The notes below the pieces were generated by a model. The model had not been told where the DNA came from. It worked only from the letters and a program-made list of their open reading frames with translations, and made no database searches. DNA of 63,285 nucleotides, filler included, from Bipalium vagum (Eukaryota), in assembly GCA_037834085.1 (NCBI GenBank). It is 3 parts of 3 records of this genome, joined end to end, with 100 filler letters (N's around TTAATTAATTAA, not from the genome) between each part and the next. Parts side by side here need not be neighbours in the genome. Positions count along the whole stretch, not along the records: positions 1 to 29,787 come from JBBMKC010011777.1; positions 29,888 to 45,694 come from JBBMKC010144926.1; positions 45,795 to 63,285 come from JBBMKC010063278.1. One strand, written 5' to 3'. A program made the position numbers and the translations under genes. Below are positions 3,291 to 62,990 of the stretch, one piece after another. Each line of letters opens with the position of its first letter. Position 1 is the first letter of the stretch.

Positions 3291-4879
3291 AGTAACTTTT
3301 CTAATAATTTCTGAATGTTATACTAAAAAATAAATCCCGTTTTAGAATTAAGCACAGCACTGCAAAAATTTAATGGAAGGTTTTTGTATTTTTAAATGTA
3401 TTAATTATAATTAATAATAAAATTCATTAAAATAATTTCTTTGCATTATAATTACATTGTAAGCATGTCTCTTGGAACACAATATGGCATACATACAAAT
3501 GTCTGTCAATTCTATGATGCCTGATTACAAAAAGTGGAAATTCTTAGAAAAATTTTAAACTGTTGTACCTGAATAAGCAAACATTCACAGACATTCACAG
3601 AGGGTTGTGTGTTTAAAAAACATTCCTTAATATATTATACATACGTTTACATACAAACCAGCGGATGTCTTCCCAAAATTTGATTTTCATTAGTCTCCAT
3701 CGATAAGGAAATATTAATAAGACAGATATAACTATCTGTAAACATGAAACATCTTCAAAGGCCTCAGGATATGCATTTGTTTTAATCCAGTTGTAATCTA
3801 TGGGATTATTTCTTACATTACCACCATCCTCAACTTCGACAGCATCGGTTATTGTCGGAATTGATCAATTAAGACATTCGATGCCATATGAAGCCTTACC
3901 AGCATTGGACAAATATGTACGACTATAATATACAAATATCTGTCTATTAAATGAATAAAGGAATGCAAAATAAGGGATTATATGTTATGTTACAATCCCC
4001 CAGATTAAATTGACTGAAATATTCCAATTAATTGTTAAAATCAATAAATTGATTATATTATTTTTCGATAAAAAATTAATTAATTTCAATACTGCCTTTA
4101 TGAAACAGAGAAAAATATATACAGATAATAAAATAAAAACAGATTTTAAAGGTATGTAAAAAATATTAAAATTAGCTTAAATTAATATTTAAAATAAAAT
4201 TATATTTTAATTAATTAAAATATGTGAAAATAAATAATTTCATCTTAATAAAAATTAATTAATTTATCTTAATTATTACAATAACTCTATCATTGTTGAG
4301 TAAGTGGAAGAGATTAGTTAGAAATTTTAATTAAAACAAAAAGATTATTGATTTATGATAATTTTCATTGGAGTTATTTTTAATTATCTTTTAATAAGTA
4401 ATCAATATTCTAATTATTTAAAACAAAATGTTTATGAAATACCTTATTAATAATTAAAATAGTAGATGTAATGTAATCATAATTATACATTTTTAATTCG
4501 ATTTGTCTAAAAGTGATGAAAATAATAAAATATTTTTTAATTATTTAATAATTGTCAATTATAATTTCCTCATAATATATTACTCACAAGTAGTATCATT
4601 CTTTTTGTTTAAATTAAGTTCTAAATTAAATTTCTTTACATCAGATAAAGAGCGTAATTTTTCCAATGTTTGGTGGAGTTTTAATCTATAAAAACTGTCC
4701 AGCTAGATCAAATTGATACTATCTTCAAATGAAAAGAAAATTTTTGTTTTAATTTGAAAATTCTAGTGGTCCCCATTACGAGTCATACATAAAACCCAGT
4801 TTTCCATTAGAGGTTTGTTTTTCTTTAAGGATTACGTTGGCGAAAAGTTTCAAGCCTTTTTACTTGTGCATATTTAATC

Positions 4880-5275
4880 TGAGTATTATTTATTTCCTCA
4901 CTTTGTTAACAAGAGGCTAAAAGATACATAATTATTGACATTGAAGTCCCTTTGTATCAGAGGTCTCTGTCTGATGTAATGATGAGGCAAACAAACAAAA
5001 ATATCAGATTCCACTTGATGAAGTCAAAACCTATGAGCATTTTTATTCGATATAGTGAATCGTGGATCCCAACTAAATACCAAACATTCGGATCATTATT
5101 GATTTTAAAAATCTTAAATCAGTAAAAATATTTTAAAAATTTACTATCAAGACGACCATTAACATCCATAATATTTGGAAAAATCTCTTAGCCAGAGCCG
5201 AGTCAAACAGCAAAACGTCATCATCTCAATGAGAACCGCATCTTTGATATTAAATAAATCACTGTTTTTGTATTT
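4880..5275 (+). mobile_element. 3' end of an RLE-endonuclease (NeSL/R2-group) non-LTR retrotransposon, degenerate
   Basis: Clear nucleotide homology to 31860-32260 (IIDIEVP motif, TCGTGGATCCCA, shared 3' UTR ending AATAAA.CACTGTTTTT). Confidence 0.75.
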
Positions 5276-5814
5276 TTGTAATTGTTTGAATGAACGTTTA
5301 CTGTTGACTTTCAAAATATTATTTGTCAATATTATTATAGTTAAAGTTCTCCAACGAAAAATATCCGTTGTTCTGAAGGATAAGATTAATAAATTTTGGT
5401 AGGATTTTAGCTATATAAAACAACTTTGAGTTATTCAAATATTTTCAATAATTGTGGTCGTGTAAAGATTGGTAAATCTAATCGTGGCGTATGGTCGTGA
5501 ATTTTCAACCCAAACTCCATTTTAGCTGTTATTGAAAGGATTGAGGACGGTCATCATTAACAGCTCAAATACTGATTGAAGGTTTTGAATAAGTTTTATT
5601 CTGATTTTTGAAAAAATTACACCAAATTAAAATTTTCACCTTTTCCCTCTTTGAACTTCCTCATCAACCTAATCTCATAAATGAGACTAGAATTTATTGT
5701 TTGATTGAATATTTCACAGATATGGGTTTTTTCAATTTAAAACGGTAAAAACAGATAATTATATTGTTTGAATAAATGTTCTTTAATTTTTAAAAAATTA
5801 TTTTTCATTAATAG

Positions 5815-6130
5815 GGATCCATCACTTTAATTATTGAGGCTCATGATACCGTGGAAAGCAGACCATTCCATCGTTTAGTCATAGACCGAGTAGTTTACAG
5901 AAATATTCTGAAACCATCTTTGGAAAGGAAATCTTCAGAAAAGTGGCATGATGTTGTCCTACTTAATGGTCTTTCTGTCTATCAATTTAGCATTAGCTTA
6001 ACCTGCCATGGTGATTATTATGGAGAATCGTGTGATAGGTATTGCAAAAATAATTCTGGTCATTACCAATGCGACCGCAATGGAGACAAGGTCTGCAATC
6101 ATGGCTGGATGGGCACTGATTGCAATACAA
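5815..6130 (+). CDS. jagged: Jagged exon: C2/MNNL C-terminus and DSL domain
   Basis: AG at 5813-14; [11 protein letters not shown]...[46 protein letters not shown] at 6131. Confidence 0.92.
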
Positions 6131-6133
6131 GTG

Positions 6134-6201
<68 letters not shown>

Positions 6202-60230: not shown

Positions 60231-60799
60231 CAAAATAGATTTAACAGTAGAAACAACATAAAATTTAGAACCTTCAAATTAAATAACAAACTTGGTATTA
60301 TTTCAATTTCAAAATCTAATAAAAATTTCAGATAAATTTAATCCATTTTGATTTTCATATTTCACAGAGTTTTCTCAATTTTTTTTAAAAACTTGTTAAT
60401 ATTTATATAAACCTTTATTTTTTTTTATAAATTTTAGGAAACAAAATATGAAACTAAAATTTTTAAAAAATTGTATTTTAATATTTTTAATTAATTTATT
60501 TAGATAATTTTTTTAGAAAATTATTTTCAAACTGATTTTGATAAAATATAGTTTAAATTAAAAGTAAAGGTTGTGAAAATTTAAGAAATATTCTAATTAA
60601 ATTTAATTAATTAAAATTTAATAAACACGTATGCATGTTAAAAATGTTTATGTTTATAAAAAATGCATGTTTAAAAAATAATTAATTAAGATTTCTGAGT
60701 CATCTTTTTAATTTAAAGAGATAAATTAGAAATTAAAAGACAATAACATTTATTTAAACACCAAGCAATAAATATTAATTTATAAAACGTCACGAAATC

Positions 60800-61260
60800 A
60801 TAAATGGCAAAGATTTTACGTTATTCATCATGTTAGGCCAGAAGCTTTGTGTGTTTGTATTTTTTTTTGAGGATTTTTAATATTTAATCTTTAGCTAATT
60901 GTCTGGTGAATATAATATCCAGACTTTGTCAAGCTACATTAGCTTCTCCATTCATCACTCATGATGATAGAACCATCTTTGTATTTTCCTTGAATATAAA
61001 GGCAGCAATGTTACAACAGATAGGTTTTCGATTTGTTGTAAGTATATTTGGCATGGATTTTACGAAACAACAAAGTCTAAAATCTATAATTCGTAGTCAG
61101 GCGTTCTAATCACATGGTATTTAGGTTTACATCGAATTTCATATATTTGAACGACCTTGATCGGAACACCAAGTATTATTTTATGTCTTTCAAAATAATT
61201 TCGACCTCATTTCTTTAATTTTGAAAAAAATTGCAAAACGGCAGATTCTGAAACCCACTG
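60800..61260 (-). mobile_element. Tc1-like remnant, 5' end
   Basis: TIR-like CAGTGGGTTTCAGAATC ending at 61260; degenerate HTH-like frame. Confidence 0.5.
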
Positions 61261-61599
61261 TCTTTGATGGCTGATTTCACAGAACGTTCCTCATTCCACA
61301 TATACGATAAATATAAAGATTTATTGAGATATATTGTGAATTCAGAGAATATGACGTCTGTCAATTTTTTTACGAGATTATAATTGTAGAAACTATAAAA
61401 TTAGGTTTTGTTTAAATGAATAGCTGACGAAAATATTTTAAATCTAGATTTGAAAATTGATTTAATTCGATGTTATTATCACAATGGAAATTCCCATAAA
61501 GCTGCAATTATGGAAAACAAACGCCAAGAAAATAAATAAGTGACCCATGTTCATGTTCTGCATTATCAATTATTATTAATATCAAAAAAGTTTAAGGAA

Positions 61600-61870
61600 A
61601 CTGAAAGTATATGTCAATATATCTCATTGATGGTGTCCTTTTTTGAGGGAACGGAACACAGCTATTAGATGTTCAATTACTGATTATGGATTATAAAACT
61701 TCCAATCGAAGAATATTGCCGGAAACTAATATTCCACCTGCCTCGGTTCGACACATTTAAAAAGAATAGAAGTTTAAACATTTTAAGATGCAGCTGCTCC
61801 ATGAGCTGAAACCAGATGACTATGATCAACGAGCTGCAAACTGCAGGTGGACCCGAAGGTAATGTCGTTT
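61600..61870 (+). mobile_element. rosa/DD41D-like transposase fragment
   Basis: KMQLLHELKPDDYDQRAANCRW. Confidence 0.7.
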
Positions 61871-62599
61871 TTTAAAATAAAATTCAAAAAGTTCAAATTT
61901 GATACAATAATAATACAATATTGTTCTTCCTCGAGTTAATGTTATCTGTTAAATGAAATCATTTTGAGAACATAATATAGGGAAACCTATGATATTCCAT
62001 TTACTGTACATATTATTTAGCATTAATAATATGATTTTTTGTCAATTTTATTCCCTATTTAATTTTTCTTCTCTGTTTTGACACAAACGGTACTAAGTCA
62101 ATTTTATTTAATGAAAATTAATTAATTTATTAATTAAAATGCTTATTTTTTAATATGCTAAAATATTTATAAAGTAAACCGTTTATGCGATTTTGAATTT
62201 TTAAAAGTGAAATCTAATTAAATATTTCTATTATGCATTTTTTTAGAATTTATTTTAATATATTAATGTATATAATCTATATAATAAATAAATATAAATA
62301 ATAAATAAATAAAAGTAATAAAATAAAATTTCATTTTTAAATTTAAAATTTTTTTAAAAAGAAGTGCTCAACTAATTTTAATCGGATTTTTAAAAATAAA
62401 ACCCTTTTAAGAGCTTTTTATAATTTAATTATAAATATTAATTAATTAAACATTTTTAAAACTTAAAAAGTTCTTTTAAAATTTCTAAATTTAAAATCGA
62501 TTTTAGAAGAATCGTTAAATTGATTTTTTAAAAAAACCTGAAAAAATTATTATCCACTTTTTCAGTTTCACAATCACTTAAAACGTATTAAAATTAGAT

Positions 62600-62990
62600 T
62601 TTTTGAAATTCGAATTCCTCTTATGAGAATAATACCAATTTAAGTTTATTTTAGTAAATACTTTGTCAAACTCATAAAATTATCCTAGAAACTGTAATTT
62701 TATTAAACCTCTCTATTTTTTCTCTTGTGGTATGATTTGAAATGTTATTCATTTCATTTATAATTTCAATATCTTCAATATGTTTCTTTTAATTTTTTTG
62801 AAATATATATTTAATATCATGTTTTATCGTAACATGATCTATTCTATTTATTTTAATCAAATAATCTTCAGAAATTGGATTAATACTTAATTCATGTTTT
62901 TCATTATAATTATTAATAACTTCATCATAATTTTCTAATCCTTAATCAATATTTGTTTCAGGTCTATAAAATTGCGACAGAATTTGTTTT
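62600..62990 (-). mobile_element. Second PLA2X pseudogene (Polinton/adintovirus fossil)
   Basis: NFI(fs)PETNID*GLENYDEVINNYNE..LSINPI..INRIDHVTIKHDIKY..HIEDIEII..TTREKIER; homologous to 38657-39000. Confidence 0.72.

Follow-up and report, generated by a model that had tools for sequence, protein, structure and literature searches.

The stretch of Bipalium vagum DNA analysed here (the window, 63,285 nucleotides) consists of three unrelated contigs packed together, at positions 1–29787, 29888–45694, and 45795–63285, so the five items flagged in the original prediction are not a single locus. Judged by homology, four of the five are real, broken fossils of Polinton/Maverick (adintovirus) elements. 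The decayed 5′ half of a PLA2-integrase gene lies at 38309–39099 on the plus strand (E 3e-24 to genomic ORFs), where PLA2 and the start of an integrase had been placed at 38620–39110. This piece comprises PLA2 with a KHD motif, a helical linker, and the first integrase residues, which are all that the window carries of the integrase, and the alignment is unbroken into the integrase start. It contains stops and frameshifts and terminates before the DDE core. Both predicted parts are thus present at this position, but not as two neighbouring genes, since they belong to one fused gene. A second decayed piece on the same contig (45276–45673, plus strand), absent from the original prediction, covers the N-terminal leader as far as the beginning of PLA2. 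A third piece, with the PLA2 domain only, lies at 62690–63053 on the minus strand (E 2e-22), in agreement with the PLA2 proposed at 62600–62990, and is 68% identical to the 38309–39099 piece over 210 nt.

A protein-primed DNA polymerase B (pPolB) of the endonuclease-VII-bearing type is represented by its decayed C-terminus at 46151–46482 on the plus strand (E 2e-21), a longer span than the 46270–46395 that had been recognised. It matches C-termini that align with the full-length pPolB of two viral contigs, L161 and L162. The end of an accessory ORF, which comes after pPolB in other copies, is found at 46973–47071 (plus strand), and a putative minor capsid (penton) piece at 59195–59365 (plus strand); both had been overlooked. 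The penton piece is directly upstream of the ATPase, as its gene is in other copies. It has no Pfam match and is named from its position and from a motif that we take to be characteristic of pentons. The packaging ATPase had been assigned to 59536–60230 on the plus strand. Only the part at ~59536–59800 is the N-terminal part of an A32-like ATPase, with Walker A (E 1e-13; E 2e-9 against the ORF of L122), and its C-terminal half appears to be deleted. Related ATPase copies (L122 and L124) match Pox_A32 in Pfam. The segment at 59916–60330 (plus strand) is instead the decayed N-terminus of a double-jelly-roll major capsid gene, holding ranks 1–2 of 1230 tiles in the capsid profile search.

None of the window fragments matches a viral Pfam family unaided (30 frames scanned; mariner domains only), and they were confirmed via better-preserved copies in the same genome. 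The tblastn control with the reversed window gave no matches. The AT-rich tracts at 46–48.5 kb and 59–63 kb had been suggested to be, in large part, decayed viral body. Only 16% and 27.5% of them match, respectively; these figures are lower bounds because the search panel holds genes only. Mariner pieces intervene and the orientations are inconsistent with one element, which argues against a single decayed body. The scraps in the window are without function of their own.

The fifth item, a capsid piece proposed at 3420–3960 on the minus strand, was rejected, since no search gave capsid or other Polinton homology. Against the capsid profile the score was negative (best rank 177–185 of 1230 tiles), and double-jelly-roll homology was not found. 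Capsids of other classes fall under two of the searches only, among them the one against 1.84 billion proteins described below. The region has no Pfam or PDB match, only the self-match in the own-genome search (two frames), and no DNA copy of its putative coding part in the genome. One frame searched against 1.84 billion proteins gave a sole match, to a bacterial repeat protein, which was dismissed as spurious, a sum of weak repeats. The sequence is single-copy and is situated upstream of the earliest Serrate/Jagged exon recognised; it may be the ancient remnant of a different gene.

The family is abundant in the genome. With the self-match included, matches were obtained for 150 of 150 scored PLA2 candidates (the best of 1354), 150 of 150 for the ATPase (the best of 509), and 147 of 150 for the pPolB C-terminus (the best of 312). 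Own-genome profile searches gave 122 matches among 126 scored for the capsid (PF21738; 446 candidates) and 75 among 91 for the polymerase (PF03175; 676 candidates). In 80 random contigs the Polinton load is 4.3% (7 of 80 hit; bootstrap 1.0–8.5%; reversed control 0.08%), and the window, at 3.2%, is typical of the genome. A survey of 173 own-genome loci gave 10 distinct contigs with at least four of eight core gene classes apiece. The genes are thus found together in single contigs elsewhere, where the original prediction had named their never doing so as the outcome that would count against it, and this supports its proposal of repeated colonisation by a PLA2-encoding element of the Polinton/adintovirus type. 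The commonest gene order, assembled from overlapping contigs of different subfamilies, is end, PLA2-integrase, small ORF, protease, ORF, penton, ATPase, capsid, and last a polymerase gene in convergent orientation. Other copies are rearranged or have internal deletions. In this assembly of 272,664 contigs (mean contig ~1.6 kb), neither a complete element nor paired terminal repeats nor a target duplication of 6 bp was seen, and no contig inspected has both element ends.

In this family, PLA2 makes up the N-terminal portion of the ORF that encodes the integrase. Among 27 PLA2-integrase junctions, 15 are in frame and 11 open, as against 0 of 54 for the other frames. Pfam rve and Phospholip_A2_4 are found within one ORF; PF00665 (rve integrase) is above the cut-off in four of five fused ORFs scanned, and PF08398 (PLA2) in two of the five (E 4.5e-6 in L043). 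Both catalytic Asp residues of the integrase are invariant in the 27 aligned rows. A folded model of the fused protein (pLDDT 78.5) gave Foldseek matches to retroviral integrases and intasomes; the lists contain integrases only, so the match bears on the integrase part. As read from these sequences, PLA2 and integrase are one fused gene in a single reading frame, not two neighbours. Outside this genome, the fusion is kept in 98 of 120 homologs among the matches listed, which points to packaging as a polyprotein. In viral contigs, a single-protein scan found nothing, and an alignment-based search found 30 loci, three of them with the PLA2 part. The linker has a conserved Gly-x-Gly, which fits the strict adenovirus protease consensus, in the form that we presume for it, in only 8 of 78 homologs. 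We found no description of the fusion in the open literature; subscription papers, Repbase, and some supplements lie outside that search and may hold one, or a flatworm member of the group.

The candidate maturation-protease homologs are located after the integrase. With an unannotated viral-contig ORF bearing H/D/C motifs as the query, 62 of 150 scored candidates matched (281 candidates in all), and none of eight own-genome candidates matched the adenovirus-like protease family PF00770. Two polymerase types, ~23% identical, coexist in the genome. The type in the window is without PF03175 in hmmscan, yet L002 reaches 54.7 bits in the PF03175 profile search. A bidnavirus-like PolB of the pfam03175 type is the mark of the Alpha adintovirus class. 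Both types go with one capsid clade and morphogenetic module, suggesting exchange between elements. As for the ends, a 28-nt motif starting with AGTAGT occurs exactly 48 times in the genome (control 0). Among 31 distinct outer flanks ~27 are unrelated, as judged by eye, and in seven contigs the motif leads inward to PLA2-integrase. Of the two starts typical of Polinton/Maverick ends, (AGT)2 and (AG)3, the first is thus seen, in one subfamily only. These ends fold back, with the terminal 30 nt repeated in inverse orientation immediately inward. The window contains no copy of the 28-nt motif, and the terminal repeats found in it are AT-rich chance repeats only.

The pieces on the third contig (46–63 kb) might be taken for the decayed body of one large insertion, since a span of 17 kb there contains pieces of pPolB, penton, ATPase, capsid, and PLA2. 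Capsid (plus) followed by PLA2-integrase (minus) is also found in L109 and L123, so 59.2–63.1 kb could be one rearranged copy. However, pPolB faces the capsid gene in most copies (L112, L113, L119, L124, and L133) and is on the same strand only in L111, whereas the window pPolB is 13 kb upstream of the capsid on the same strand. Together with the small matched fractions given above, the mariner remnants in between, and the lack of terminal repeats in the window, this makes one insertion improbable. That the PLA2 pieces are endogenous parvovirus or densovirus VP1 fragments, with no relation to the rest, can hardly be entertained: PF08398 is indeed the parvovirus-type PLA2 domain, but in 11 of 27 copies the PLA2 frame stays open into an rve integrase, and a window piece itself reaches the integrase start. 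The fusion to integrase refutes such an origin.

The host of the assembly is likely a rhabditophoran flatworm. In cox1, AAA stands at five of five positions that we take to be conserved Asn, and ATA is read as Ile. At least three types of cox1, 74–79% identical to each other, are present in the assembly, so the host assignment and some of the Polinton contigs may involve another animal. That the assembly is mixed and the Polinton sequences belong to a second organism would also accord with the few Polinton contigs of higher GC (L194, 0.50; L021, 0.35). It is nevertheless very improbable, because on one contig an intact TM9SF1 gene stands between two of the window pieces, decay of the pieces is far advanced, and the GC of most family loci inspected, 0.18–0.28, is like that of the host. 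TM9SF1 itself is 49–53% identical to all 120 homologs among the matches listed and is uninformative for host placement. A more serious alternative is a purely intracellular, self-synthesising transposon that forms no particles in this host and carries the capsid, ATPase, and PLA2 as passengers. Thousands of candidate copies, many deleted forms, and an element known here from its genes alone are in keeping with it, and Maverick particles were unobserved as of PMC8097293, in the part of that report available to us. Yet the entire morphogenetic block is preserved with long open frames in several subfamilies, and the sharing of one capsid clade by two polymerase types implies exchange between elements. 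We regard this alternative as rather unlikely, though far from negligible. With high confidence, we consider the pieces to be short, stop-ridden remnants of a very abundant Polinton/Maverick (adintovirus-type) family, likely from at least five independent insertions in a likely rhabditophoran host.

The closest known systems, as described in the accessible parts of the sources, are the Alpha (Mayetiola-class) adintoviruses, whose virion modules characteristically include a parvovirus-like PLA2 (Starrett et al. 2021, PMC8502044; Sf Mavericks, PMC5803895). They share with the present family pPolB, rve integrase, A32/FtsK ATPase, hexon-type capsid, penton, protease homolog, and the parvovirus-like PLA2. 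In contrast to the single frame here, their PLA2X/CAP and integrase are described there as separate ORFs (PMC8502044, PMC5803895). The main text and part of the supplement of Starrett et al. 2021 (PMC8502044) contain no flatworm member that we could find. Flatworm expansion is already known from the Mavericks of Dugesia (bioRxiv 10.64898/2025.12.11.693146, in part); Schmidtea Polintons are reported as piRNA-silenced (PMC8532177, in part), and Orthopolintovirales-related insertions are reported in Rhabditophora (10.1101/2025.04.19.649669, in part). Abundant Maverick/Polinton DNA is thus common to the present genome, Dugesia, and Schmidtea, compared by description and not at the gene level. In nematode Polintons, one morphogenetic module occurs with either of two distant pPolBs (bioRxiv 10.1101/2023.08.22.554363), a comparable pairing in another host phylum, with pPolB1 and pPolB2 as possible counterparts of the two types here, and module swaps are described as common (10.64898/2026.06.19.733378, in part). 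Vertebrate Mavericks resemble the present family in the (AGT)2 end motif and in mostly defective copies; unlike it, they have no PLA2 in the gene list of the figure legend, and the inverted copy of the terminal 30 nt is not mentioned in the accessible part of that report (PMC8097293).

Three IMG/VR contigs (L160–L162) share with the family PLA2 followed by integrase, protease homolog, ATPase, and capsid. Their polymerase is of the PF03175 type in L160 and of the endonuclease-VII type in L161 and L162. PLA2 and integrase, fused in the present family, are split in L161 by an apparent frameshift and in L162 into overlapping ORFs. The own-genome capsids form a clade apart from those of L160–L162, subject to a base-composition caveat.

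Following established Polinton biology, the element would have copied itself with its own polymerase, integrated into the genome by its rve integrase, and probably once made particles. The PLA2-integrase protein may have been packed inside these particles, the protease of the element likely cleaving the chain at its conserved Gly-x-Gly linker. PLA2 would then serve in membrane escape, and the integrase would arrive together with the DNA. Once inserted, most copies would have been worn down to scraps of 0.1–1 kb by deletions and by the insertion of mariners.

Scattered fossils such as those in the window are ordinary, as Polinton debris is common in animals. The less ordinary feature of the family is a predicted membrane-breaching enzyme and a DNA-inserting enzyme in one frame. 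To our knowledge, there is no settled account of how the integrase of a Polinton finds its way to the incoming genome; the in-frame fusion to a predicted virion-entry enzyme points to packaging as a polyprotein. Tentatively, and at somewhat less than even confidence, we propose that the lineage represents widespread, apparently undescribed animal Polintons whose integrase is delivered in a virion polyprotein and cut by the protease at the Gly-x-Gly linker, much as in retroviruses, and which make up several percent of the genome, swap polymerases, and have fold-back ends that maybe serve replication. A load of ~4%, the presence of several subfamilies, and a capsid module shared by two polymerases make this genome well suited to dating waves of Polintons and to studying module exchange in flatworms.

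The window fragments are too decayed to reach viral Pfam families directly in a Pfam scan. Therefore, the genome was searched with the fragments, and the natural ORFs of the recovered loci were compared back to the window. In the own genome, 150 of 150 scored candidates matched the PLA2 piece, 150 of 150 the ATPase piece, and 147 of 150 the pPolB piece, each count including the self-hit. The four real pieces reached E values of 3e-24, 2e-21, 1e-13, and 2e-22 in the back-search, and the reversed window used as a control had no matches. These results bear out four of the five pieces in the original prediction, namely the PLA2-integrase piece (38309–39099, + strand), the pPolB C-terminus (46151–46482, +), the ATPase piece, and the second PLA2 (62690–63053, −), but not a capsid at 3420–3960. 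The ATPase call holds for only about 59536–59800 (+) in the back-search; farther on, past an apparent deletion, own-genome comparison and a capsid profile place the beginning of the major capsid gene. With the profile, this stretch takes the top two ranks among 1230 tiles, and it does so too when own-genome sequences are left out of the profile. Beyond the prediction, three more gene pieces and one accessory ORF end were found in the window. The own-genome comparison places a penton piece directly before the ATPase piece, and the back-search gave a third, previously overlooked PLA2-gene piece (45276–45673).

The capsid assignment at 3420–3960 was rejected, since the stretch is single-copy in the genome, has negative capsid-profile scores among the 1230 tiles, and matched nothing credible. 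It is slightly GC-richer and lies upstream of the first recognized Serrate exon. It could be an unrecognized exon or an old fossil.

Genome searches matched 122 of 126 scored candidates for the PF21738 capsid, 75 of 91 for PF03175, and 62 of 150 for a protease homolog; the PF00770 protease profile matched none of its 8 candidates. At least four of the eight core gene classes are present at 15 of 173 own-genome loci, on 10 distinct contigs, confirming that the element genes co-occur elsewhere in the genome. The commonest order, assembled from overlaps, is PLA2-integrase, small ORF, and protease (L114, L055, L057), ORF and penton (L204), ATPase, capsid, and then a convergent polymerase (polymerase end: L112, L113, L119, L124). 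Deleted forms (L022, L110, L118) and alternative layouts (L111, L094, L044, L137) are also found; the latter form a subfamily with capsid gene and PLA2-integrase arranged head-to-head, the capsid gene not following the ATPase. In one subfamily, the similarity upstream of PLA2 ends at a common terminus with a 28-nt motif beginning with AGTAGT, the start motif given for the ends of vertebrate Mavericks (PMC8097293). The 28-nt motif occurs exactly 48 times (control, 0), some occurrences being inner copies, and about 27 of 31 outer flanks are unrelated. The first 30 nt of the element usually recur as an inverted copy 80–240 nt inside the end, and the predicted fold of one end has −27.9 kcal/mol (z −6.6). 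One or two such copies giving a strong predicted hairpin are seen at L332:4500–4721 and about 20 other loci among L287–L335. The element works like a Polinton/Maverick and, by most of the features that could be tested, is one. A Polinton protease contig and a Polinton polymerase contig, L194 and L021, have GC contents of 0.50 and 0.35, unlike the host; they possibly stem from a different organism or represent a separate family.

PLA2 and integrase share a single reading frame in many copies, and Pfam finds both domains in the same ORF. Of the 27 distinct junctions compared, the frame is kept in 15 and runs open in 11, while alternative frames gave 0/54. Structure comparison of the model of the fused protein (pLDDT 78.5, pTM 0.52) found matches to retroviral intasomes as well as to a MELD-virus integrase. 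Both parts are held by 98 of the 120 outside homologs listed (417 found), one of the 98 being named from coral. Three viral contigs comprise one apparently fused and two split cases: the parts are adjacent but separated by an apparent frameshift (L161:9749–11331) or as overlapping ORFs (L162:7066–8480). Both fusion and fission occur. Of 78 linkers, 67 contain Gly-x-Gly, as does one of 78 control windows, yet the strict adenovirus protease consensus fits only 8 of the 78 linkers; protease cleavage at the linker is thus plausible.

Two polymerase types, about 23% identical, exist in the genome: an endonuclease-VII-bearing type, to which the window pPolB piece belongs, and a PF03175-strong type. 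Both adjoin the same module (L119, L124, L113 versus L030, L110, L022, L118). Just one capsid contig and one penton contig accompany the second type; in trees of 24 and 19 rows with long outgroup branches, they nest among the other own-genome sequences. These observations hint thinly at polymerase exchange in this family, in line with the replacement of polymerases among nematode Polintons (10.1101/2023.08.22.554363).

The proposal that the AT-rich DNA at 46–48.5 and 59–63 kb is largely decayed virus body was not upheld. Recognizable Polinton genes, in a panel restricted to the coding parts of the element, cover 16% of 46.0–48.5 kb and 27.5% of 59–63 kb, and mariner remnants sit between the pieces. 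No terminal repeats were found in the window, and its pPolB departs from the usual layout in both strand and side. The window pieces have median identities of 70–76% to the fetched loci, and the identity between two PLA2 pieces is 68%. Though 59.2–63.1 kb could be one rearranged copy, we read the pieces as at least five separate remnants. Of 80 contigs drawn at random, which total 138,872 bases with five of them truncated to 10 kb, seven carry Polinton genes, covering 4.3% (bootstrap 1.0–8.5%; reversed control 0.08%). Since the cover of the window is 3.2%, the window is typical for its genome.

The assembly (441 Mb) is split over 272,664 contigs, and the window (GC 24–28%) consists of three mutually unrelated ones, C11777, C144926, and C63278. 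C11777 carries a multi-exon Serrate/Jagged-type Notch ligand gene (5815–23011, +) with DSL, many EGF repeats, and a weak JAG1 domain. C144926 carries an intact, intronless TM9SF1 gene (40738–42567, +; 609 aa) between two Polinton remnants, with just 49–53% identity to every animal homolog among the matches listed. A small multi-pass membrane protein is encoded without introns at 35444–35959 (+); it has no Pfam match and may resemble flatworm-specific membrane proteins. Decayed mariner/Tc1 transposase pieces lie at about 2900–3250, 8434–8980, 22403–22641, 29923–30176, 40050–40190, 53931–54302, and 56363–56878. The 77 nt at 63146–63222 share 97% identity with the edge of L131 and look like a young DNA-transposon end.

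Three different cox1 sequences (among L190–L193) were found, together with a nuclear copy that matches L191 at 92% identity. L190 has AAA at five of five positions with conserved Asn in cox1 and reads ATA as Ile, indicating mitochondrial table 9, the code of rhabditophoran flatworms and of echinoderms. Between these two groups, the low GC makes a flatworm the likelier host. The second cox1, accompanied by the nuclear copy, also reads ATA as Ile and is 79% identical; in the third, ATA is apparently Met. The assembly is a mixture of animals, the additional ones being perhaps prey.

For flatworms, published reports describe an expansion of Mavericks in Dugesia (10.64898/2025.12.11.693146), insertions of Orthopolintovirales in Rhabditophora (10.1101/2025.04.19.649669), and Polintons silenced by piRNA in Schmidtea (PMC8532177). 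PLA2X is a marker of Alpha adintovirus virion modules (PMC8502044), and PMC3671162 names PLA2 in a legend. In Spodoptera Mavericks, PLA2 is a separate ORF (PMC5803895), whereas many copies here have it in one frame with integrase; no published description of this fusion was found within the literature searched. The scraps in the window are ordinary, and the modest added interest lies in the fusion, the possible polymerase exchange, and the predicted fold-back ends.
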